In this document: positions 1 to 21,893 of the stretch, piece by piece
Numbering within the stretch: position 1 is the first letter of the stretch
How the letters are laid out: every line of letters starts with the position of its first letter
Position numbers and translations under genes: made by a program
Notes under the pieces: generated by a model
Told to the model about the DNA's origin: nothing
What the model saw: only the letters and a program-made list of their open reading frames with translations
Database searches by the model: none
Source of the DNA: Candidatus Daviesbacteria bacterium
Lineage (GTDB): Bacteria; Patescibacteriota; Microgenomatia; Daviesbacterales; UBA10151
Assembly: GCA_016184225.1 (NCBI GenBank)
Contig: JACPDA010000004.1
Coordinates: forward strand, 208,372-272,371
Length of the DNA: 64,000 nt
Direction: 5' to 3'

Positions 1-96
1 AATCCTTCAAAGCAAGAAAAACAACTCTATGAAGAATTAAAAAATTTATCCTCCCCGCCTGGCGGCGAGGCAAGCAAGAAAAAAGGCTGGTTTTAG
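1..96 (+). CDS. 3' end of an upstream ORF (partial, product unknown; occupies the slot where rimP often precedes nusA)
   Basis: Open frame from window position 1 to TAG at 94-96 (..EELKNLSSPPGGEASKKKGWF*); no recognisable motif. Confidence 0.3.
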   Translation, partial: NPSKQEKQLYEELKNLSSPPGGEASKKKGWF

Positions 97-188
97 CTCT
101 AGCTTGACTTCAAGTTGGCATAAGAGTTAGAATATGCCTGGTTAATATTCAAGAGGACCTGAAGGTGGGCTAGTCCCACCTTTTTAAT

Positions 189-257
189 AGGCAACAGGCA
201 TCAGGTTACAGGCAACAGATAAAAACACTGTAGCCTAAAGCCTGTCGCCTGTAACCT
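189..257 (+). repeat. CAGGCAACAG-family repeat forming an approximately 16-bp hairpin (AGGTTACAGGCAACAG / CTGTCGCCTGTAACCT) ending 8 nt before the nusA ATG
   Basis: Direct reading; related heptamer copies in rplC (38359-38393) and map (50185-50217). Confidence 0.5.
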
Positions 258-264
258 AACTAAA

Positions 265-1653
265 ATGGCACAAGCACGAACAGAATTTGCAGCTGCTCTA
301 AATCAAATAGCCTCTGAAAAAGGGGTAGAAGTTGAAGTGGTTTTAGATGCCATCAGAGTGGCTGCTTTGGCTGCCTATAAGAAAGATTTGATGCTTAGAA
401 ATGAGCCTGTTCCGGAAGACTTTGAAGAATTTACTTCGGCAGTTGATCCTGCTTCTGGTGAAATTTCCATTTTCCATGGCAAAGATAACGTAACCCCCCC
501 GGGATTTGCCCGCATTGCCGCCTCTATTGCCAAACAGGTCATTATGCAAAGGCTTAATGAGGCGGAAAGAGGAACTATTTTGGCAGAATACGAGGGTAAA
601 GTCGGCACTGTTATTTCAGGCAGCATTCAAAGGCAGGAAGGCAACACCTTTTTTATAGATTTAGGCCGGGCTGAAGGAGTATTGCCCCCATCTGAGCAAG
701 TCCACAGCGAAATGTATCATCAAAACCAGAGACTCAAGTTTTTGGTTAAAGAAATACGGGAAGGCGGCAGAGGGTCTGAGGTGGTGGTTTCCCGGTCTGA
801 TCCAAGTTTAGTGAAAGCGCTGTTTGCCCTGGAAGTGCCGGAAATTCAATCAGGCGCTGTGGAAATTAAAGTAATTGCCCGGGAAGCCGGTTCTAGAACT
901 AAAATTGCCGCTATTTCTACCCAGGATGGGGTTGATCCGGTGGGCAGTTTAGTCGGGCAAAAAGGAGTCAGGGTACAGGCTGTAATTGGTGAACTGAGTG
1001 AGGAAAAAATTGATATTATCAGCTACTCTGAAGATCCGGCCAGGTTTATTGCAGCGGCACTGTCTCCGGCCAAAGATATTCAGGTTAGGTTAAACGAAGA
1101 AGGCAAGATTGCCACAGTAACAGTTCCTCAAAGCCAACTTTCTCTGGCTATTGGTAAAGGCGGGCAAAATGTCAGGTTAGCAGCTAAACTGACCGGCTGG
1201 AAGATTGATATAGAAGGAGCAGAAGAGCCGGAAACTGCTAAAGAAGATGTCATTCTGGGGAGTGAAGCGACTCCAGAATCTGAAAAGAAGGATTCTGGAC
1301 AAGTCCCGATGGAATCGAGGACACTCGACAGAGTCGGTGCCAGAATGACAGAAGATGGCACTGGCGAGAAAAAGGAGGAGCCGACTACTGCTCCGGCCCA
1401 AGCGACACCGGCTGATGATACGAAAGTTGCACAGCCAGAAAAGAAACAGGCAAAAGAAGCGATAGAAAAGGAAGTTTCTGAAGCTGAGGAAAATGCAGCA
1501 ACCACAGAAGACAAAGAAGCAGCAGAAGAAGCAGGAGAGGTTTTAGAAAAAGCAGTTGAGGCAGAAAACCCAGAGCAGGAGAAACAACAATTAGAAGAAG
1601 CAGTTGGAGAGACAAAGGAAGCGAAAACTGAAACAGAAAAAACAAAGGAATAG
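265..1653 (+). CDS. nusA: Transcription termination/antitermination factor NusA with long acidic E/K/T/A-rich C-terminal tail
   Basis: S1 and KH regions (GKGGQNVRLAAKLTGWKIDIE); followed by infB as in the conserved nusA-infB operon. Confidence 0.9.
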   Translation: MAQARTEFAAALNQIASEKGVEVEVVLDAIRVAALAAYKKDLMLRNEPVPEDFEEFTSAVDPASGEISIFHGKDNVTPPGFARIAASIAKQVIMQRLNEAERGTILAEYEGKVGTVISGSIQRQEGNTFFIDLGRAEGVLPPSEQVHSEMYHQNQRLKFLVKEIREGGRGSEVVVSRSDPSLVKALFALEVPEIQSGAVEIKVIAREAGSRTKIAAISTQDGVDPVGSLVGQKGVRVQAVIGELSEEKIDIISYSEDPARFIAAALSPAKDIQVRLNEEGKIATVTVPQSQLSLAIGKGGQNVRLAAKLTGWKIDIEGAEEPETAKEDVILGSEATPESEKKDSGQVPMESRTLDRVGARMTEDGTGEKKEEPTTAPAQATPADDTKVAQPEKKQAKEAIEKEVSEAEENAATTEDKEAAEEAGEVLEKAVEAENPEQEKQQLEEAVGETKEAKTETEKTKE

Positions 1654-1685
1654 TATGGTAACGTTATTAACCATACCAAAAAATT

Positions 1686-3176
1686 ATGGCAGAACAAACA
1701 CGACCACCAATAGTTACAATCCTGGGCCATGTTGATCATGGTAAAACTACCCTACTTGATTTTATCCGTAAATCCTCGGTAGCTACCAAGGAACACGGTG
1801 GAATTACCCAACACATTGGGGCTTACCAAATAGAAGTGCAAAGCGAAAAGGGCAAAGTGCAAAGTGGACTTAACACTCAGCACTCCTCACTTATCACTTT
1901 TATTGATACCCCCGGGCATGCCGCCTTTGAAAAAATGCGCTCCCGCGGCGCGAATGTGGCTGATATTGCTATTTTGGTGGTGGCGGCAGATGACGGGATT
2001 ATGCCGCAGACTATTGAAGCTATTAAACATATCCAGGAGGCTAAAGTATCAATGATTGTGGCAGTTAACAAGATTGATTTGAGTGGAATTGACCAAAATA
2101 TCCAGCTGGCCAAGATCAAAAAGCAATTGTCTGACCAAAAAATCAATCTGGAAGAATACGGCGGGGACGTGCCGCTGCTGCCTCTTTCGGCCAAAACCGG
2201 AGAAGGGGTGGATAAACTTTTGGAGATGATACTTTTAGTCTCAGAGATGCATGAGTTAAAAGGCGACCCGGCACTTCCGCCAGCCGGGGTCATTATTGAA
2301 GCTATGCTGGATAAATTCAAAGGGCCGATTGCCACTATTTTAATCAGGAATGGCACTTTGAAAAAAGGAGATCAAATAGAAGTGGGCGAAATTAAAAGTA
2401 AGGTCCGGGGGATGTTTGATTTTAGTGGTAAACCAGTAGATTCAGCCGGGCCGTCAACTCCGGTGGAGGTGTTAGGTTTGGAAGCAGTGCCGGTTGTGGG
2501 GGCAGTTTTAGGGGAGTTGGCTGAGGTAAAAGAGGCGGAGGTAATACAATCTCTGGTAGAGAAGTTACAACAAGGTGACACTAAAACCCTGAAGGTGATT
2601 ATCAAAGCTGATAAACAAGGGTCGCTAGAGGCAATTCAAACTTCTTTAGAAAAATTTAATGCAGAGCGAAAAGTAGTTGATTATATTTCTACCGGAACAG
2701 GAGATATTGGGGAAGAAAACATTAAACTGGCCGCCTCGGTGGGAGCAATTGTGATTGGATTTAATGTCAAAGTTGCCTCAAATGCCCAAAAAATGGCTGA
2801 GAATGAACATGTGCTGATTAGAACTTACAATATTATTTATGAACTGCTGGAGGATGTAGAGGAAGTGGTCAATACTTTGCTTGAAGTGGGGCAGTTGGAA
2901 GAAGTTTTAGGGAAGGCCAATATTATTGCTGAGTTTCCTCACGGCAAAACCGAGAAAATTGCCGGGTGCCGGATGACAGAAGGGACAATTGCCAAAGGGC
3001 AAAAGATCAGAATTGTGCGGGAGGGAGTGCTGATCGGTGAAACTAAGCTTAAATTTTTGAAAAAGGTGAAAGAGGAAGTTAATAAGGTGGAAAAAGGTAA
3101 TGATTGCGGCATGCTCTTTGACCCGCCGATGGATTTTCAAATTGGAGACACCGTGGAATCATTTAGAGTGATTTGA
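1686..3176 (+). CDS. infB: Translation initiation factor IF-2 (short form, G domain at N-terminus)
   Basis: G1 [22 protein letters not shown] motifs; position after nusA. Confidence 0.9.
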   Translation: MAEQTRPPIVTILGHVDHGKTTLLDFIRKSSVATKEHGGITQHIGAYQIEVQSEKGKVQSGLNTQHSSLITFIDTPGHAAFEKMRSRGANVADIAILVVAADDGIMPQTIEAIKHIQEAKVSMIVAVNKIDLSGIDQNIQLAKIKKQLSDQKINLEEYGGDVPLLPLSAKTGEGVDKLLEMILLVSEMHELKGDPALPPAGVIIEAMLDKFKGPIATILIRNGTLKKGDQIEVGEIKSKVRGMFDFSGKPVDSAGPSTPVEVLGLEAVPVVGAVLGELAEVKEAEVIQSLVEKLQQGDTKTLKVIIKADKQGSLEAIQTSLEKFNAERKVVDYISTGTGDIGEENIKLAASVGAIVIGFNVKVASNAQKMAENEHVLIRTYNIIYELLEDVEEVVNTLLEVGQLEEVLGKANIIAEFPHGKTEKIAGCRMTEGTIAKGQKIRIVREGVLIGETKLKFLKKVKEEVNKVEKGNDCGMLFDPPMDFQIGDTVESFRVI

Positions 3177-3201
3177 CTTTTTAAGCCTGTAGGATTAGAA
3201 T
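3173..3201 (+). promoter_or_regulatory. sigma70-like promoter TTGACT-17-TAGAAT, 9 nt before the ATG of the 3211 gene
   Basis: TTGACT at 3173-3178, 17-nt spacer, TAGAAT at 3196-3201. Confidence 0.5.
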
Positions 3202-3210
3202 CTGCTTGTT

Positions 3211-4005
3211 ATGTCAGCTGAAGCACCAAAAGTACAAGATGCAGATGTTAGAAGAGCAGCAAGGTCACGTTTGCAACCGGAAGGGAATTGGATGGGACGG
3301 GCTTATTCACTCAATAGAATTTTTGATGGTCTCAATTCACGTCTTGATAATGGTGATATTGATGGGTTTTTAAGATTAAATAAGTTAGCTGTTCACAGAA
3401 TTACTTCATACTGGCTGCCTATTGCCAAATTTTTTATCATGGCTAAAACACCATGGTACCTTATAGAACCACGTATACTTTATTCCAGTTATTCTTATCG
3501 AGATCGAGATGGTAAGGTGGATCTTTCTTGTATGACTGCTCGTTCAACTGATAGGCAAGCAGGAAGCAAATTTATGAGGCGGGTTATTACAGATGACGGG
3601 TTGCAGGAGGACAACTGTAGAATTAAGACTTGGGTAGAAGAGGGTGGTCAACTTTACAACCCAGAAACTTGGCTTGTGATGGATATAGAACAGAGATGTA
3701 CAATTCCTCCAGACAGCTATGGTTTTTTTATTGGCATTAATAACTACAAAGGAGGGTTATTACAGGAAATAGTTAGAACACCGGGTCTGAAAGGATGGGA
3801 TTTGGTAACAGCATTAGGGATCTTCAGAGGGGAATTATCACCAGAGAAACTAGTAAGAATACCGCCTCCGGTAGAAGGAATTAGGGTGGTGGGAGCTGGT
3901 GTTTATGGCTCTGGCGAACCAAATGAGGTACATCAAAAAGGACTCAGAGATGGTATGTATCTAATACCTAGAGAACAATTTTCCCAATATTTCCCTCCTG
4001 CTTGA
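3211..4005 (+). CDS. Hypothetical protein (264 aa, Trp-rich, no recognised domain) occupying the usual rbfA/truB slot
   Basis: Long ORF with its own promoter; GLNSRLDNGDIDG segment loosely resembles a pol-beta NTase G-x9-DxD motif (weak). Confidence 0.5.
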   Translation: MSAEAPKVQDADVRRAARSRLQPEGNWMGRAYSLNRIFDGLNSRLDNGDIDGFLRLNKLAVHRITSYWLPIAKFFIMAKTPWYLIEPRILYSSYSYRDRDGKVDLSCMTARSTDRQAGSKFMRRVITDDGLQEDNCRIKTWVEEGGQLYNPETWLVMDIEQRCTIPPDSYGFFIGINNYKGGLLQEIVRTPGLKGWDLVTALGIFRGELSPEKLVRIPPPVEGIRVVGAGVYGSGEPNEVHQKGLRDGMYLIPREQFSQYFPPA

Positions 4006-4030
4006 AATTATGGGCTAGTGGTGGTAGAAT
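4002..4030 (+). promoter_or_regulatory. sigma70-like promoter TTGAAA-17-TAGAAT upstream of the 4043 gene
   Basis: TTGAAA 4002-4007, 17-nt spacer, TAGAAT 4025-4030, 12 nt to ATG. Confidence 0.5.
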
Positions 4031-4042
4031 CGCTCTACTTAA

Positions 4043-5053
4043 ATGAAATACGATTCACAGCTTGCGGAACTTAAAAATCTTTTACCTTCTGCTAAAAACA
4101 TTTTAATCGCCATTCCGACCGGTGCTGATGTAGACAAACTGGCAGCCGGGTTGGCTTTATTTTTAGCCTTTGAGGTAGCTGGTAAGCAGGTTAGTATAGT
4201 CTCTGATGATGCGATGCTGGTTTCCCACACCCATCTTTTTGGAGTGGACCATGTTCAAAAAACCCTTCCTTCCACCGATGGTGGAAACTTAACTTTAACT
4301 TTGGAAGGGGTGGCTGCATCTGACGGGACAGTGCCGGCTTTGGAAAAGCTGGATTGGTTTGCGGAAAACAATAATTTAAACCTGGTCTTTCATGTCTTAC
4401 CTAACCAAACATTCCAACCGGCCCGCATAATCCCCCGCTACCAGGGTTCCGGATTTAACTTAATCTTTACGGTGGGGGCAGCTAATTTGAACGCATTGGG
4501 AAGTATTTATTCAGCCAACAGCCAAGCTTTTTCCGGCACCCATATTGTTAATATAGATATTCAGTCTGCTAATACCAGTTTTGGCCAGACTAATGTTTTA
4601 GATGCCCAAGCTTCTTCTTTATCAGAGGTGGTCAGTTTGGTTATTACGGATCTGGGTTTTATTCTAGATTCAGACAGCGCCAGCAATATCCTGGCCGGGA
4701 TTTTTGATGCCACTAATAATTTATTTGATCCTAAAGTGACGGCTGATACTTATGTGGCAGTAGCTAATTGTCTCCGGGTGGGAGGCAAAAAGCCATCCTC
4801 TGTTCAGGCTGCGGAGGTTATGCCGCAAAGTCCGCAGCATGTGATAACTCAAGCTCAACCGGCTTATGACTGGAATGCTGTTTCTGCGGCCATTGGCCAA
4901 AATGTGCCTCCGAAATATACTGTGCCTCCGGTTGTAGTTTCTGACTCCCAACCTTCACCGGAAGAGCGACCGCTTGAAGAAGGTGTAGTTTCCGAGACAG
5001 TTGAACCGGAATGGCTGACCCCCAAAATCTTCAAAGGCACTTCACTAGGATAA
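4043..5053 (+). CDS. DHH/DHHA1-like (NrnA/CnpB-like) phosphoesterase domain protein with divergent catalytic motifs
   Basis: N-terminal ILIAIPTGADVDKLAAGLAL resembles DHH motif I (DxD) region, VDHVQ in place of DHH, VGGKK in place of GGGH; nrnA-like genes are known to neighbour rbfA in other bacteria. Confidence 0.4.
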   Translation: MKYDSQLAELKNLLPSAKNILIAIPTGADVDKLAAGLALFLAFEVAGKQVSIVSDDAMLVSHTHLFGVDHVQKTLPSTDGGNLTLTLEGVAASDGTVPALEKLDWFAENNNLNLVFHVLPNQTFQPARIIPRYQGSGFNLIFTVGAANLNALGSIYSANSQAFSGTHIVNIDIQSANTSFGQTNVLDAQASSLSEVVSLVITDLGFILDSDSASNILAGIFDATNNLFDPKVTADTYVAVANCLRVGGKKPSSVQAAEVMPQSPQHVITQAQPAYDWNAVSAAIGQNVPPKYTVPPVVVSDSQPSPEERPLEEGVVSETVEPEWLTPKIFKGTSLG

Positions 5054-5146
5054 ACAGTTGCATCTTCTTTAATTTTCTGTTACAATACGCCCAAACCAAA
5101 TTTAGGACGACTTTGGCATCAAAGTTGTTCCAAAGAAAGGGTTACG

Positions 5147-5416
5147 ATGCCACTTGATCCAAAGATTAAGCAAAAAATTATTAAAGAGTTTGCCACCAAG
5201 TCCGGTGATACAGGTTCCCCTGAAGTGCAGGTGGCACTTTTAACAGAGCAGATCAAAAACTTAAGCGACCATTTAAAAGAACACCCACACGATATTCATT
5301 CCCGCCGCGGACTTTTGTCAATGGTTAACAAGCGCCGCAGGTTGCTTCAGTATTTATTCAAAAAAGAGACTGATAGATATAGTGTGGTTATTGAGAAATT
5401 GGGATTATCCAAGTGA
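5147..5416 (+). CDS. rpsO: 30S ribosomal protein S15
   Basis: 89 aa, conserved S15 sequence (..[30 protein letters not shown]..); precedes pnp. Confidence 0.9.
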
Positions 5417-5595
5417 TTGTGGTATACTAATTAAGTAAGACCCGCCTGCATCGCTATGCGAAGCATTGCGGGCAGGGAGATTTGGGGATTGTAAAGAGTT
5501 AGGTAGTCATCAGCTATCAGTCGTCCCGATTGAATCGGGACAGCTGAAGACTGAGAGCTAATTACCTCTTACCCAGTTTCCAAATCCTCCATTTT

Positions 5596-5672
5596 AAGAG
5601 TCTAGAATCGAGAATCTAGAGTCAAGGGAAGAAATTAATTTCCCAGACTCTTGACTCTAGCGACTAGTCACT
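5596..5672 (+). repeat. Heptamer array (N)AGAGTC x4 (5596-5628) plus complementary 20-nt box GACTCTAGCGACTAGTCACT (5653-5672) ending 4 nt before the pnp ATG; hairpin-forming intergenic element
   Basis: AGAGTC/GACTCT are reverse complements; same two-part element recurs at 43315-43424, 46605-46690 and 50906-50970. Confidence 0.6.
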
Positions 5673-5676
5673 ATTT

Positions 5677-8043
5677 ATGCATAAAGTTATTACCAAAGAA
5701 ATCGACCTTAATGGTCGAAAACTAAAATTAGAAACAGGTAAACTGGCTCTGCAAGCAGATGCATCTGTGGTGGTTTCATGGGGAGAAACAGTCATTTTAG
5801 CAACTGTGGCCACGCAACCTTTGGCTGAAGATATTGGTTATTTTCCTCTTTCTGTAGAATATGTGGAAAAACACTATGCCGGCGGCCGAATCTCCTCTTC
5901 CAGGTTTATCAAAAGAGAAACTAAACCGACAGATGAGGCTGTGTTAACCGGTAGGTTAATCGACCGCTCCATTCGTCCCCTTTTCCCCAAAGAGTTTAAA
6001 AATAACGAAGTGCAGGTGATTCTAACGGTTTTATCTGTTGATCAGGCTAATGATCCGGATATTGTCGGTTTAATCGGGGCTTCAACTGCACTGTCTATTT
6101 CATCTGTGCCTTGGGACGGGCCGATTGCCGGAGTGCGGGTAGGAGAAAAAGAAGGGAAACTGATGGTCAACCCCACCATGGAAGAGATGGAGAAATTGAA
6201 TATGGATCTTTTGGTAGCGTGCGGTAGCGAAAAAGTAGTCATGATAGAAACTGCCAGTAAGCAAGTTGACGAAAAAATAGTCTTTGCCGGAATTAAAGAA
6301 GCCCACACCGCAGTAGCGCCAATAATTGTTTTAATAGAGGAATTCGTTAAAGAAGCCGGTAAAGAAAAATTGCCCATTTCCCATTTGGCTGAGGAGATAG
6401 AGGAAGCTTTAATTTCCGAGGTGACAAAAATTACCAAAGAAAGAATTGAAGCAGCGCTTTTTGATAATGAGCATCCCTGGCATGAAGCCACCGGCGAGAG
6501 AATCAAGAAAGAACTGGTTCTTCAGTATGCAGAAACTTTAACCCCCCAAATCATTGCCGGAATTTTTGATAAAGTGGCTAAAGAAATTGTGCATGAGAGT
6601 GTTCTTGAGAAAGGTAAAAGGGTGGATGGCCGGGGCATGGATGAGATCAGGCCGCTTCAGATGGAAGTAGGAATTTTGCCTAGGACACACGGCAGCGCCC
6701 TATTTAACCGCGGGGATACGCAGGTTCTATCTGTCGTTACTTTAGGTGCTCCTTCCTTGAAGCAAACTCTGGACGGCATGGAAGGGGAGAGGGAAAAAAG
6801 GTTTATGCATCACTACAACATGGGTATTAATCCTTTTTCCGTGGGAGAAGTTAAAAGATTAGGTCCGCCCAACAGACGTGATATCGGTCACGGAGCGTTA
6901 GCTGAAAAAGCTATTTCCGCAGTTGTTCCTTCTGAAGAGAGTTTTCCTTATGCCATCAGAGTCGTATCTGAAGTCTTAGCAGCTAATGCTTCTACTTCAA
7001 TGGCTTCTGTTTGTGCTACTACTTTAGCCCTTCTAAATGCCGGAGTTCCACTTTTTGAGCCGGTGGCAGGTATTGCTTTGGGACTATTTTCAAATAAGAA
7101 AAAATTCCAGGTAGTGGCTGACATGAGGGCGGTTGAGGATTTTTATGGTGAGATGGATTTTAAGGTGGCCGGAACTAAAAACGGTATTACCGCTATCCAA
7201 ATGGATACCAAGCTTTCAGGACTCTCTTTTGAAATTATCGAGACTGCTTTGGAGATGGGGAAAAAAGCCAGACTGGAAATTTTGGAAAAGATGGCAACAG
7301 TTATGCCCAATGTCGGCCCTCTTTCACCATATGCTCCCAGAGTGGAAACATTGCATATTAAACCGGAAGAGATCGGGCTTTTGATCGGGCCGGGCGGCAA
7401 GAATATTAATGCCATTATCGGAAGAACCGGGGCCCAAATTGATATTGAAGATGACGGGACAGTGATGGTGTCCGGAACAGATTCCAGTGGGGTAGATAAA
7501 GCCATTGCGGAAATCGAAGGCATGTTTAAAACCGTTAATGTCGGGGATGAGTTCACCGGAAAAGTGGTCAGACTCGTACCTTTCGGGGCTTTTGTGGAGA
7601 TTGCTCCTGGTAAAGACGGATTAGTTCATATTTCCCAAATGGCACCGGGCCATGTGGAGCAGGCAGAAGATGTGGTGTCTGAAGGACAAGAAGTGAAAGT
7701 TCGGGTAACCGATGTTTCACCTGATGGAAAAGTCGGATTATCAATGCTTTTTGGGGCGGATATTAAGCCTGAATCAGAAGGACGTCCTTCTGGTGGAGGC
7801 TTCAGGCCAAGAAGCGGGGGATTTAGGCCAAGACCTTCTTTTGGGGATAGACCCAGATCATCAAGTGGTGGCTATAGATCAGGTGGATTTGGCGGAGAAA
7901 GAAGCAGTGGTCCAAGACGCCCCTTTGGAGACAGACCACGAAGTGGTGGTTTTGACAGAGGTGGATCCGGGAGGTCAGGTGGATTCGACAGAGGCCGTGG
8001 CGGTGGACGAGACCGTGGTGGCCGCGGTGGATTTAACAGATAA
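5677..8043 (+). CDS. pnp: Polynucleotide phosphorylase (PNPase) with about 90-aa RGG/RG-rich C-terminal tail
   Basis: Two RNase PH domains, KH and S1 motifs; tail GGFRPRSGGFRPRP..GRGGGRDRGGRGGFNR; rpsO-pnp synteny. Confidence 0.9.
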   Translation: MHKVITKEIDLNGRKLKLETGKLALQADASVVVSWGETVILATVATQPLAEDIGYFPLSVEYVEKHYAGGRISSSRFIKRETKPTDEAVLTGRLIDRSIRPLFPKEFKNNEVQVILTVLSVDQANDPDIVGLIGASTALSISSVPWDGPIAGVRVGEKEGKLMVNPTMEEMEKLNMDLLVACGSEKVVMIETASKQVDEKIVFAGIKEAHTAVAPIIVLIEEFVKEAGKEKLPISHLAEEIEEALISEVTKITKERIEAALFDNEHPWHEATGERIKKELVLQYAETLTPQIIAGIFDKVAKEIVHESVLEKGKRVDGRGMDEIRPLQMEVGILPRTHGSALFNRGDTQVLSVVTLGAPSLKQTLDGMEGEREKRFMHHYNMGINPFSVGEVKRLGPPNRRDIGHGALAEKAISAVVPSEESFPYAIRVVSEVLAANASTSMASVCATTLALLNAGVPLFEPVAGIALGLFSNKKKFQVVADMRAVEDFYGEMDFKVAGTKNGITAIQMDTKLSGLSFEIIETALEMGKKARLEILEKMATVMPNVGPLSPYAPRVETLHIKPEEIGLLIGPGGKNINAIIGRTGAQIDIEDDGTVMVSGTDSSGVDKAIAEIEGMFKTVNVGDEFTGKVVRLVPFGAFVEIAPGKDGLVHISQMAPGHVEQAEDVVSEGQEVKVRVTDVSPDGKVGLSMLFGADIKPESEGRPSGGGFRPRSGGFRPRPSFGDRPRSSSGGYRSGGFGGERSSGPRRPFGDRPRSGGFDRGGSGRSGGFDRGRGGGRDRGGRGGFNR

Positions 8044-8098
8044 ACTATTGATTATCCTCTTGGGAAATTGTGAGCTATAAGGTAAAATAGGTAGCAGG

Positions 8099-9133
8099 AT
8101 GGATTCTGCCCGGGTCAGTGTTGAACAGTTAAAAATAAAAATTTCTCAAGCGGGTCTTCCCAAAGAAATTGAAGAGAAGCTTCTTAACATTCTGCAATTT
8201 AGTGGTCCGCCAACTGGCGGAGGTGCAGAGCTGGCCAGCTTAATTTCTTATGTGGAATTTGTCCTTGCCCTGCCGTTTAACAAGTATTCCCAGGATATTC
8301 TAGATATCAACCGGACTAAACAAATCCTGGATAAAAACCACTATGGTTTGCAATCAGTTAAAGACCGGATTTTGGAATATTTATCAGTGTTGATTTTACA
8401 CAAACAAAGCGGCCAGGAAAACGACTTTCATGCACCAATACTGGCGTTTATCGGTTTAGTGGGAACCGGTAAAACTTCCCTGGCTTACTCAATAGCAGAA
8501 AGTCTGGGACGGCCACTCATAAGGATTCCCTTTGGCGGCTTGGGAGACCCGGCCAGTTTACGCGGTCAATCCAGGCTTAGACCGGACAGTGAACCAGGGC
8601 AAATCATCAAAGCCATCCAGGCTGCCAAAGTTTCAAGTCCTGTTATACTGTTAGATGAAATAGATAGGGTGGCAGTTGAACATAGGGTGGATATTATGGG
8701 GGTATTGGTAGAGCTTTTAGATCCTGCTCAAAATCAGGCCTTTCTGGATCACTACTTAGATTTCCCATACGACCTATCACAGGTGTTATTTATTGCCACT
8801 GCCAATAATACCGGTAACATTGCCACAGCAGTTTTAGACAGACTTGAGCCAATTGTGATGCCTTCTTACTCAGACGGCGAAAAGCTGGTAATTGGCAGGG
8901 ATTATCTGTTGCCTAAAACTTTGAAAGAATCAGGTGTTGATCCAGGCTCATTGACTATTGATCAGACAACCTGGCCTCAGATTCTGCGGCCTTTAGGCTT
9001 TGATTCAGGAATTAGGTCCCTGTCACGTTCATTACAAACTATTTGCAGAAAAGTGGCCAGGAAAAAAGTGGAAGGAGAAGTCGGGCCATTTAGGATTACA
9101 GGCGAGAACCTAGGAGAGTACTTGGGAGGATGA
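8099..9133 (+). CDS. Lon-family AAA+ ATPase module only (no N-terminal LAN domain, no protease domain)
   Basis: Collinear with Lon residues about 230-600: DKNHYGL..VKDRILEYL, Walker A GLVGTGKTS, Walker B ILLDEID, sensor region ..LLDRLE..; ORF ends where the Lon protease domain would begin. Confidence 0.7.
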   Translation: MDSARVSVEQLKIKISQAGLPKEIEEKLLNILQFSGPPTGGGAELASLISYVEFVLALPFNKYSQDILDINRTKQILDKNHYGLQSVKDRILEYLSVLILHKQSGQENDFHAPILAFIGLVGTGKTSLAYSIAESLGRPLIRIPFGGLGDPASLRGQSRLRPDSEPGQIIKAIQAAKVSSPVILLDEIDRVAVEHRVDIMGVLVELLDPAQNQAFLDHYLDFPYDLSQVLFIATANNTGNIATAVLDRLEPIVMPSYSDGEKLVIGRDYLLPKTLKESGVDPGSLTIDQTTWPQILRPLGFDSGIRSLSRSLQTICRKVARKKVEGEVGPFRITGENLGEYLGG

Positions 9134-9216
9134 GATAAGGGATATTGGGATATAAAGATATTACGAGAAAAACCACTTAATATCCTAGTATCATAATATC
9201 CTATCTCGATTCATTT

Positions 9217-20572: not shown

Positions 20573-21525
20573 GAAAAATTATAACCGTTATAATTTTCAT
20601 AACAATTATAATCTTTTTGACTAAGGGTTGGTGGGAAAGCCGGTTTAGTCCGGTTTCTGCGGATAAAGCTATCAAAGTATTCGTAATAGCAAAAGGAGCC
20701 GGGGTATCGGAAATTGCCAAAAAATTAAAAGAAAAAAAACTGATTAAATCAGAACTGGCTTTTAAGATTTATGTCAGACAAGATAACTTGGCTAATAAGC
20801 TGCAGGCAGGTTCATATAAACTATCTTCCTCCATGTCTACACCGGAGATAATCAAAGCCCTGCAAACAGGTAGTGAAGATGCTTGGATTACTTTGATAGA
20901 AGGTTGGCGGGTGGAGGAGATAGCTGCAGAATTAAATTCCAAATTCCAAATTCCAAATTCCAAATTCTTAGAATTAGCAGAAGAGGGTTATATGTTTCCT
21001 GACACATATCTTTTTCCAAAAGAGGCCACCGTGGAGTATATAACCGACACTTTAAGAAACACTTTTAATGCCCGTTTCGATCCGCAGCTACGGTCAAAAA
21101 TCCGCTCTCAAGGGTTGACTGAAGATCAGGGAGTAATTTTAGCATCAATAGTGGAGCGGGAAGCTCGTTCTGACGGAGTCAGAAAAATGGTGGCATCAAT
21201 ACTTTTGAAAAGATTTAAAATTGGTATGGCTTTAAATGCCGATGCTACTTTGCAGTATGCTTTGGGGTATCAAGAGCAGGAGCGGAGTTGGTGGAAGCGT
21301 AATCTAAGCAGCGAAGACAAAAAAATAAATTCTCCCTATAATACCTATCTCCACGGCGGTTTCCCGCCAACTCCAATTAGCAATCCCGGTCTTTCATCCC
21401 TTCAGGCTGTTGCCAATGCAGATTCTTCCGTACCTTATTTGTACTATTACCATGACTCAAAAGGGGTTTCTCATTATGGCAAAACCCTGGAAGAACACAA
21501 TCAAAATATAGTCAATTATCCTTGA
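20569..21525 (+). CDS. mltG: Endolytic murein transglycosylase MltG (YceG-like); contains in-frame (AAATTCC)x4 heptamer array at 20933-20960
   Basis: N-terminal TM, YceG-like domain (AGSYKLSSSMSTPEII.., FPDTYLF, SPYNTY). Confidence 0.8.
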   Translation: MRKIITVIIFITIIIFLTKGWWESRFSPVSADKAIKVFVIAKGAGVSEIAKKLKEKKLIKSELAFKIYVRQDNLANKLQAGSYKLSSSMSTPEIIKALQTGSEDAWITLIEGWRVEEIAAELNSKFQIPNSKFLELAEEGYMFPDTYLFPKEATVEYITDTLRNTFNARFDPQLRSKIRSQGLTEDQGVILASIVEREARSDGVRKMVASILLKRFKIGMALNADATLQYALGYQEQERSWWKRNLSSEDKKINSPYNTYLHGGFPPTPISNPGLSSLQAVANADSSVPYLYYYHDSKGVSHYGKTLEEHNQNIVNYP

Positions 21526-21893
21526 GGATGACCATGTATAAGTTTCGGGGAAAAGTTAGAAGACATAACCAAAGAGGAAGAAAATTAGGTTTTCCAACAG
21601 CTAATGTCAATTTAACTAAAAGCACCCCCGAAGGAGTCTATATCTCTTACGCCAAAATAAAAATATCCACCTATCCTGCGCTGACTTTTATTGGAAAAGC
21701 TAAAACTTTTAATGAAAAGGTCTTTCAGGCAGAAGTCTATATTTTGGATTTTAAGCAGAATATTTATGGCAAGTGGATTTCTGTTAAACTTTTGCGAAAG
21801 ATAAGGGGTAACAAGAAATTTAAGTTCGTTGAAGAATTGGTCGCCCAAATGAAAAAAGATGAAGCGGAAACTAGAAAATATTTTGGGGCTTGA
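21522..21893 (+). CDS. Riboflavin kinase domain protein (RibF C-terminal-domain homolog, stand-alone)
   Basis: GRKLGFPTANV..PEGVY motif typical of bacterial riboflavin kinase. Confidence 0.6.
   Translation: MRMTMYKFRGKVRRHNQRGRKLGFPTANVNLTKSTPEGVYISYAKIKISTYPALTFIGKAKTFNEKVFQAEVYILDFKQNIYGKWISVKLLRKIRGNKKFKFVEELVAQMKKDEAETRKYFGA

Follow-up and report, generated by a model that had tools for sequence, protein, structure and literature searches.

The rbfA/truB position of a Candidatus Daviesbacteria locus holds a conserved predicted DHH-domain gene and a strain-specific insert

Which genes stand between infB and rpsO in a bacterium that lacks rbfA and truB at this place, and have they taken over from the missing genes? 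This question is raised by a 64,000-nucleotide (nt) stretch of a Candidatus Daviesbacteria genome (NCBI GenBank assembly GCA_016184225.1, contig JACPDA010000004.1, positions 208,372 to 272,371 of the forward strand; the whole stretch is called the window hereafter), in which two open reading frames (ORFs) of 264 and 336 amino acids (aa), referred to as gene A and gene B, occupy the interval that holds rbfA and truB in the canonical nusA-infB-rbfA-truB-rpsO-pnp cluster. The gene content of the nusA-infB-rpsO-pnp cluster helps to define the minimal machinery, and members of the Candidate Phyla Radiation (CPR), or Patescibacteria, use a much reduced set of ribosome-biogenesis factors. An original prediction, made from the letters of the window alone, had read the two ORFs as promoter-equipped genes standing in for rbfA and truB; both are indeed located between infB and rpsO (Table 1), and identical copies of the two proteins have been deposited as HYU45_01390 (gene A) and HYU45_01395 (gene B). 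From the analyses described below we conclude, with a probability of roughly 0.6 for the explanation as a whole, that nothing has "replaced" rbfA and truB at this locus, which has the standard Daviesbacteria nusA-infB-...-rpsO-pnp form plus one strain-specific insertion.

Neither rbfA nor truB was found in the slot or among the 37 ORFs of the window scanned with Pfam, and no Pfam match to either gene was obtained among the sampled gap ORFs from the junctions of related genomes. A six-frame tblastn search with approximate E. coli TruB and RbfA queries was likewise empty over about 649 kb, made up of the window and some 585 kb of Daviesbacteria loci. A survey of more than 30,000 genomes published in 2025 describes Microgenomatia, Dojkabacteria and WWE3 as being without rbfA, era and der (PMC12641178). 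Since the loss of rbfA is thus reported for the class Microgenomatia, to which Daviesbacteria belong, the absence of rbfA from the window is a trait of the whole class and does not point to a replacement at this locus. A search of the literature for TruB in Patescibacteria found nothing.

The gene order was compared with that of relatives, whose loci were fetched via homologs of gene B (our loci L001-L004) and complemented by 53 loci from species-representative genomes, essentially all of which are Daviesbacteria or Microgenomates. The order nusA-infB-B-rpsO-pnp is present in L001-L004 and in the 53 loci wherever the flanks are on the contig: infB is followed by gene B in all of the 46 loci that have both genes on the contig, and gene B by rpsO in 45 loci. 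The spacer between infB and gene B measures 33-101 nt in 23 of these 46 loci and 159-2167 nt in the remainder, and the spacer between gene B and rpsO measures 88-115 nt in 19 of the 45 and up to 4477 nt in the others. The B-rpsO spacer of the window has the minimal, ancestral-looking length (93 nt), and the distance from infB to gene B amounts to 866 nt because gene A lies there. Compared with the canonical cluster, the window therefore keeps nusA, infB, rpsO and pnp in the same order and on the same strand, whereas rbfA and truB are lacking, as they are in the Daviesbacteria loci examined, and the genes have individual promoters abutting their starts instead of one obvious operon promoter. 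With rbfA absent through a reported class-level loss and a DHH-type gene as the usual occupant of the slot, the apparent anomaly largely dissolves. The replacement reading is borne out only in part: the loss of rbfA is class-wide, gene B is the normal occupant and gene A is an insert.

Some minor observations concern these loci. Many records of metagenome-assembled genomes bear the title "uncultured Gammaproteobacteria bacterium" (L020, L031, L033, L034, L037 and others) and are evidently mislabelled, as they carry a typical Daviesbacteria nusA-infB-B-rpsO-pnp locus with a gene B of 55-82% identity (50% in L070). In Candidatus Daviesbacteria GW2011_GWA1_41_61 (L068, positions 5001-5168), only the last 65 or so codons of a gene B homolog, including the invariant tail described below, are found in a different gene context with stop codons ahead, which suggests a truncated remnant or a rearrangement event. 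About 16 kb downstream of the cluster in the window, a 123-aa RibF consists of the flavokinase alone (PF01687, without the FAD-synthetase domain; 21522-21893). In Firmicutes-type clusters, ribF is the usual neighbour of truB, so the old cluster seems to have been dispersed or reduced.

Gene B has 622 homologs, all of them from Daviesbacteria, Microgenomates or Patescibacteria. The DHH-family support on which the earlier assignment of this protein depended was found. A profile of 24 gene B members, compared with the PDB, matched best to 4ls9, the NrnA of Mycobacterium smegmatis (MSMEG_2630; E 5.5e-7), and further to Rv2837c/CnpB of M. tuberculosis, NrnA of Staphylococcus aureus and Bacillus subtilis and TM1595 of Thermotoga maritima, the E-values ranging to 2e-3; these matches end inside the DHH domain, and the true DHH motif is aligned to the residues "dtq" of gene B. 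In a Foldseek search of the PDB with the AlphaFold model of gene B, all 31 matches at E ≤ 1e-3 belonged to the DHH superfamily, with Rv2837c as the best one (E 9.7e-8); the model itself is poor, with a predicted local distance difference test score (pLDDT) of only 51.6, and was used only to support the sequence result. The relationship lies below the detection level of domain libraries: gene B had no match to Pfam DHH (PF01368) even at E ≤ 1 and none in NCBIfam at E ≤ 10, no precomputed Pfam domain was present on the 120 gene B homologs listed, and the PHROGs and PADLOC scans of genes A and B gave nothing usable. Judged by the profile and model comparisons, gene B is a predicted DHH-domain homolog of NrnA/CnpB; by gene order, it is the gene that regularly occupies the slot. 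In actinobacteria, the NrnA clade is situated in infB-rbfA operons and co-transcribed with them (PMC4081065), which also documents the earlier remark that proteins of this type neighbour rbfA in some bacteria; since gene B likewise lies downstream of infB, we think that it most plausibly descends from the gene at that position.

The resemblance to NrnA/CnpB (MSMEG_2630, 4ls9; Rv2837c, 5jju/5cet) hence comprises a shared DHH fold and sequence (E 5.5e-7 to 1.1e-6), the DxD of motif I, the Asp of motif III and the place just 3' of infB. The residues of the catalytic motifs were tallied over 159 distinct gene B members. Motif I, D29-V-D31, is aligned to D-A-D of 4ls9, and D31 is kept in 158 of the 159 members, while 124 members have D at position 29, 25 have S and 10 have N. 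The position of the motif II Asp is taken by G145, which is Gly without exception (159/159). In motif III, D172-I173-Q174 stands for DHH, the first residue being D in 157 members, the second T, N or I and the third Q in 143 members, and His was not among the tallied residues at either of the two DHH His positions. For motif IV, the hidden Markov model (HMM) alignment places Ala223 opposite the Mn2+-binding Asp-185 of MSMEG_2630, although a shift by one residue is possible and the adjoining residue 222 is D or E in 151 of the 159 members. Neither a DHHA1 domain nor its GGGH motif was found in gene B, where the family alignment shows a variable low-complexity linker after about residue 250 and then a conserved 33-aa tail. 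Gene B differs from NrnA/CnpB also in a beta-rich insertion of about 55 aa, in its tail on a linker predicted to be disordered and in having no rbfA alongside. Motif I and motif II are separated by 114 residues (D31 to G145), the corresponding distance in B. subtilis NrnA being about 55. Of the earlier description of "DHH/DHHA1-like blocks" with non-canonical residues, the DHH blocks and the unusual residues were thus recovered, but not a DHHA1-like block.

The purifying selection on gene B is about as strong as that on infB: the ratio of nonsynonymous to synonymous substitution rates (dN/dS) is 0.03-0.16 for gene B and 0.05-0.09 for infB among the pairs with finite dS. In MSMEG_2630, His-135 and Asp-185 bind Mn2+, and the D134A variant is inactive (PMC4081065). 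That two or three of the canonical metal ligands are consistently lost in gene B is suggestive and would point away from catalysis, and we consider gene B to be probably a non-canonical or non-catalytic DHH protein. It probably descends from an NrnA/CnpB-type DHH phosphoesterase that lost the motif II Asp, both His residues of the DHH motif and the whole substrate-binding DHHA1 domain. The gains were the beta-rich insertion of about 55 aa and, attached through a flexible linker, the invariant peptide at the C-terminus. From the loss of the ligands and of DHHA1 together with an infB-like constraint we infer that it would no longer be a canonical two-metal nanoRNase. We take it to act instead within RNA or translation metabolism, where it would bind or link other components and could dock through its C-terminal peptide. 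With at least 159 distinct (622 detected) NrnA-derived proteins that lack the DHH His residues and DHHA1 and are constrained like infB, the gene B family is a candidate for a bacterial DHH pseudoenzyme or adaptor.

Several points weigh against a non-catalytic gene B. The proposed inactivity rests on sequence only, and D31, D172 and D/E222 are kept. D55, D56, D69, H70 and H117 are further invariant acidic or His residues, which might form an alternative metal site, and the poor AlphaFold model does not allow the active-site geometry to be read. The DHH domain of MSMEG_2630 alone hydrolyses 3'-phosphoadenosine 5'-phosphate (pAp) and bis-p-nitrophenyl phosphate (bis-pNPP) (PMC4081065), and the missing DHHA1 domain in gene B is therefore not decisive. 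Finally, a PDB sequence search with the tail peptide was empty, and no partner was identified. These points lead to the strongest of the alternatives, namely that gene B has remained an active phosphoesterase whose metal site was rebuilt in a non-canonical form (candidate residues D31, D55/D56, D69/H70, D172 and D/E222) and which acts on small substrates such as pAp or dinucleotides, for which DHHA1 would be unneeded. Besides the pAp phosphatase and bis-pNPP phosphodiesterase activities of the isolated domain, it is favoured by the retained acidic residues (158, 157 and 151 of the 159 members for D31, D172 and D/E222, respectively), by the position of some of the extra invariant Asp and His residues at the C-terminal end of the predicted beta2 strand, and by the strong purifying selection, which fits an enzyme. 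On the other side, His-135, a direct ligand of Mn2+, and His-136 are replaced across the gene B family, the motif II Asp is Gly throughout, an Ala lies opposite Asp-185, the GGGH-bearing domain is absent and the Pfam DHH model is not matched, so that we regard an active enzyme as a serious but less likely alternative.

A precedent for the opposite outcome is given by Cdc45, a catalytically inactive protein of the RecJ/DHH fold (PMC4359367), which demonstrates that such a protein can be kept as a binding or scaffold subunit; archaeal RecJ-Cdc45 is among the weaker Foldseek matches of gene B. However, there is no specific relationship, as gene B matches best to the bacterial NrnA/CnpB proteins. 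Moreover, Cdc45 retains a DHHA1-like domain and acts in the replicative helicase, whereas the context of gene B is a translation/RNA-decay operon, and the proposed inactivity of gene B is deduced from its residues. In its most far-reaching form, the pseudoenzyme idea would hold that the NrnA-derived DHH domain lost catalysis in Daviesbacteria and was repurposed as an adaptor of either the translation or the RNA-decay machinery that docks via its acidic-aromatic tail and might partially compensate for the class-wide loss of RbfA and Era, and that gene A is a conflict-driven cassette of new fold exchanged between strains; taken together, this seems unlikely to us.

The tail in question (QPSPEERPxxEGVxSETVEPEWLTPKIFKGxSxG) is nearly invariant in the family, and no second occurrence of the peptide was found within the window. 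In the far-reaching form of the pseudoenzyme idea, candidate docking partners would be, for example, the Arg/Gly-rich tail of PNPase, RNase J or Y, or the 30S subunit. The PNPase of the window has an Arg/Gly-rich C-terminal extension of about 90 residues past its S1 domain (GGFRPRSGGFRPRP...GGRDRGGRGGFNR; 7760-8043), and the PNPase homologs of relatives are of similar length (776-799 aa). It is conceivable that this extension is an electrostatic partner of the acidic gene B tail.

In contrast to gene B, gene A has a very narrow distribution. It was not detected, by tblastn or HMM, in any of the 53 species-representative loci, all of which carry gene B. A word-indexed search of 5.8 billion protein clusters returned gene A itself and one protein of 39% identity, and an exhaustive HMMER search of 1.84 billion representatives brought the family to four members in total, out of some 15 billion proteins; no more relatives were found when the 5.8-billion-cluster database was searched again with a profile, or in IMG/VR and the JGI metagenomes. 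Identical copies of gene A are contained in the assemblies of 10 sequencing runs, always between infB and gene B, and gene A is therefore a real gene of this population. Of the other family members, P0002 (locus L005) lies directly 3' of the infB stop codon, P0123 (locus L016) lacks its first 62 or so codons through 5' truncation and lies directly 5' of a 69%-identical gene B homolog, and P0124, from a more distantly related organism, is preceded by an M24 peptidase gene, with neither infB nor gene B nearby.

The place where gene A is found is variable in general. Among 85 gap ORFs at the infB-B and B-rpsO junctions of relatives, about 54 are singletons, and the cargo includes a few small minus-strand modules of two genes each that recur and resemble toxin-antitoxin systems (DUF5615/DUF433-type), PIN/RHH pairs, a DDE transposase, an M23 peptidase, an RTX-repeat protein and a P5C reductase; searches of this cargo with an HMM and by all-against-all phmmer comparison detected no remote relative of gene A. 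Across Daviesbacteria, both junctions are hotspots of insertion, which is useful to know for the annotation of CPR genomes, and gene A is a strain-specific accessory insert, i.e. one more cargo gene. Similar to the known hotspots between core genes that collect toxin-antitoxin modules, insertion sequences and ORFans, the junction content varies by genome, and gene A is narrowly distributed and evolves fast. Unlike in these hotspots, gene A is accompanied neither by a mobility gene or flanking repeat nor by a known domain of defence or toxin proteins, and its fold has no specific match; in the junction alignment, neither flanking direct repeats nor a mobility gene were visible. A foreign composition of gene A was considered and rejected (GC content z -0.2, codon usage z 0.0), only the GC content at third codon positions (GC3) being lowish (z -1.7).

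The dN/dS of gene A amounts to 0.66-0.79 (bootstrap 0.44-1.12). The proportion of synonymous differences (pS) is 0.39-0.40 for gene A and 0.68 for gene B of the same genome pair, with bootstrap intervals that do not overlap, although these values come from a simple Nei-Gojobori count in two pairwise comparisons of an AT-biased gene (GC3 0.28). In addition, runs of exact nucleotide identity occur within the otherwise diverged gene A sequence. The low pS and the identity runs fit a cassette that was exchanged after the divergence of the backbone and then evolved fast or under relaxed constraint; the gene A cassette would have been inserted with its own promoter in the infB-B junction and appears to have passed between strains at a later time than the divergence of the backbone. 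The role of gene A is most likely at strain level (conflict, defence or host interaction) and outside ribosome biogenesis, which we propose with low confidence. This proposal has to be set against three findings: PADLOC and PHROGs point to no function for gene A; the high dN/dS may reflect relaxed constraint before loss and not conflict-driven change; and three of the four family members adjoin infB or gene B, which would allow a functional link.

Such a link, with gene A as a partner or regulator of gene B or of translation initiation, is the next alternative to be weighed. Three of the four family members (window, L005 and L016) are located directly after infB, directly before a gene B homolog, or both, and the stop codon of gene A lies inside the -35 box of the gene B promoter in the window and in L016, and inside a similar TTGAAA box in L005, where the downstream gene is off the contig. 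The three linked copies are not independent, however, as they stem from closely related populations, two of them from a single run (SRR22388083). Besides, the 53 species-representative genomes carry gene B without gene A, P0124 is far from infB and gene B, gene A evolves with a dN/dS of about 0.7-0.8 compared with about 0.1 for gene B, and one copy is 5'-truncated. Taking these points together, we consider a coupling of gene A to infB or gene B as decidedly improbable.

Even less probable, and in our view very unlikely, is that gene A is non-functional, be it as a decaying or spurious ORF or because its conserved blocks are a nucleotide-level element. A dN/dS near 1 (bootstrap upper bound 1.0-1.1), the conservation of the blocks also at synonymous sites, the exact identity runs and the 5' truncation of one homolog would agree with this. 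On the other hand, the frame is open over 223-264 codons in three full-length homologs of 34-45% identity, whose length differences fit in-frame indels; a strong promoter is located directly upstream in the window and in L017; the codon usage is host-like; Rfam is empty; and the conserved blocks are aromatic-rich, protein-typical motifs in a protein for which AlphaFold, from only four sequences, gives a coherent core (pLDDT 70-88). The synonymous conservation is almost complete in codons 46-75 (3346-3435), where pS is 0.03 and the proportion of nonsynonymous differences (pN) 0.19 between the window and L005, and where identical runs of 19-25 nt are shared with L005 and L016. A recombination tract, codon bias or a nucleotide-level element could each explain this pattern; in Rfam, only a chance-level overlap with SAM_alpha on the minus strand was found here (E 0.64).

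As originally described, the 264-aa protein is rich in Trp (2.3%, with a mean of 0.6% in the window) and belongs to no recognisable family: no match was found in Pfam, NCBIfam, PHROG and PADLOC, and the PDB sequence-profile search was empty at E ≤ 10. PADLOC and PHROG scans of gene A, P0002 and P0124 likewise gave no match at E ≤ 1, except for one at chance level in PHROG (E 0.14). The predicted fold consists of N-terminal helices (residues 34-46 and 50-85) and a seven-stranded antiparallel sheet (residues 89-191), and is followed by a low-confidence, lineage-specific insertion (residues 193-238). Structure searches with this model found no specific fold match, and in BFVD none at E ≤ 1e-3. 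A G-x9-DID segment had been noticed as loosely reminiscent of pol-beta nucleotidyltransferases. The defining motif of that superfamily, hG[GS]-x9-13-Dh[DE]h, lies on a beta-hairpin, and its two acidic residues are conserved. A G...DID segment is present with the spacing G40-x8-D49-I50-D51, but gene A does not correspond to this definition, and the resemblance was rejected. That gene A is an RbfA or TruB highly diverged in place can practically be dismissed, as only its position in the slot and a GDIDG segment superficially like the GTLDP motif of TruB point in this direction, whereas Pfam, PDB profile and structure searches detected neither similarity to RbfA (PF02033, KH-like) nor the TruB fold (PF01509) with its catalytic Asp in GxLDxxAxG.

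Both genes are preceded by promoter-like sites of the sigma70 type, which are among the three best of the 9.2 kb scanned, and no Shine-Dalgarno (SD) sequence was found before either start. The sites are interlocked with the upstream genes: the TGA stop codon of infB is located inside the -35 hexamer of the gene A promoter, and the TGA of gene A inside that of the gene B promoter. In L005, the same TTGACT -35 box lies over the infB stop codon, without a close match to a -10 box. The gene B promoter fits cTTGAnnTTATGGGnTA..GGTA[A/G]AAT, which recurs as a conserved motif where other Daviesbacteria have the minimal infB-B spacer. Because of this shared motif, we regard the gene B promoter as ancestral, gene A having been added upstream with a promoter of its own.

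The original claim of one near-consensus promoter per gene was correct as far as the sites themselves are concerned, but the arrangement is not special to genes A and B. A -10 hexamer matching at least 5 of 6 positions ends 4-13 nt before the start codon of 14 of the 58 genes in the window, compared with 2.7 ± 1.7 when the anchors were random (at most 8 in 200 trials), and this start-abutting layout is almost mutually exclusive with SD-like cores. Examples of starts with such -10-like hexamers, often of the extended TG type (TGgTAtAAT), are those at 8099, 10963, 13103, 14292, 30157, 35612, 48453 and 49324. The best promoter match seen precedes a 281-aa ORFan at 30157 (TTGACA-17-TATTAT, 11 of 12 positions, 6 nt before the ATG). 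Going by these sequence patterns, genes A and B are most likely transcribed from compact start-abutting promoters into leaderless or near-leaderless mRNAs, and the enrichment in the window suggests that such transcripts could be widespread in this CPR genome, which would be useful for annotation; a literature search that combined Patescibacteria, leaderless and promoter found no paper. The coordinates of the features are compiled in Table 1.

Table 1 Features of the nusA-pnp region, with positions in nucleotides of the window.
Feature	Position	Strand	Evidence and remarks
nusA, 462 aa	265..1653	+	Pfam NusA_N, S1, KH_5; upstream end of the conserved backbone, also 5' of infB in relatives
infB, short IF2 of 496 aa	1686..3176	+	Pfam GTP_EFTU, IF-2, EF-G_D2
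Promoter-like site of gene A, TTGACT-17-TAGAAT	3173..3201	+	10/12 positions; ends 9 nt before the ATG
Gene A, ORF of 264 aa	3211..4005	+	Family of four members; strain-specific accessory ORF
Promoter-like site of gene B, TTGAAA-17-TAGAAT, extended TG	4002..4030	+	10/12 positions; ends 12 nt before the ATG
Gene B, ORF of 336 aa	4043..5053	+	Predicted DHH-domain homolog
Gene B residues 1-250, predicted degenerate DHH domain	4043..4792	+	Profile alignment, Foldseek, tally of 159 members
Gene B residues ~78-133, conserved insertion of ~55 aa	4274..4441	+	Predicted beta-strands, poorly modelled; alignment conservation, secondary structure, low pLDDT
Gene B residues 251-302, Pro/Gln/Ser/Val-rich linker	4793..4948	+	Variable length, predicted disordered; at the place expected for DHHA1
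Gene B residues 303-336 and stop, near-invariant C-terminal peptide	4949..5053	+	Alignment
rpsO (S15)	5147..5416	+	Pfam; SD-like AAAGGG upstream
pnp (PNPase), Arg/Gly-rich C-terminal extension	5677..8043	+	Downstream end of the conserved backbone
Lon-like AAA gene	8099..9133	+	

A second core operon of the window is also interrupted. In the rpsL-rpsG-fusA-tuf region, the 281-aa ORFan mentioned above (30157-31002) and about 1.3 kb with only small ORFs, together spanning 30157-32363, precede fusA, and two more ORFans of 214 and 120 aa are located at 34529-35483, between fusA and tuf. The GC3 of the 281-aa ORFan (z -2.4) is the lowest among the eight genes with listed z-scores. These interruptions look like the insertion of gene A into a core operon. 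Between tuf and rpsJ, a free-standing gene (36807-37187) encodes a homolog of the 23S rRNA intervening-sequence protein (PF05635, E 3.6e-27).

The two genes at the upstream end of the cluster have features of their own. NusA (265-1653) carries a very acidic, Glu/Lys-rich C-terminal extension of about 130 residues, and the IF2 of 496 aa (1686-3176) begins directly at the GTPase domain; an acidic NusA tail and a short IF2 are typical of the reduced translation factors of CPR bacteria. At the downstream end, the 260-nt spacer between rpsO and pnp (5417-5676) is predicted to form a very stable system of long hairpins, with a minimum free energy of -100.2 kcal/mol (z = -7.7) that was reached by none of 200 shuffled sequences. 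An Rfam scan of positions 1-9200 yielded matches at chance level only and assigned no family to this spacer. In E. coli, pnp has an autoregulatory hairpin that is processed by RNase III, and by analogy the rpsO-pnp hairpin may be a pnp leader.

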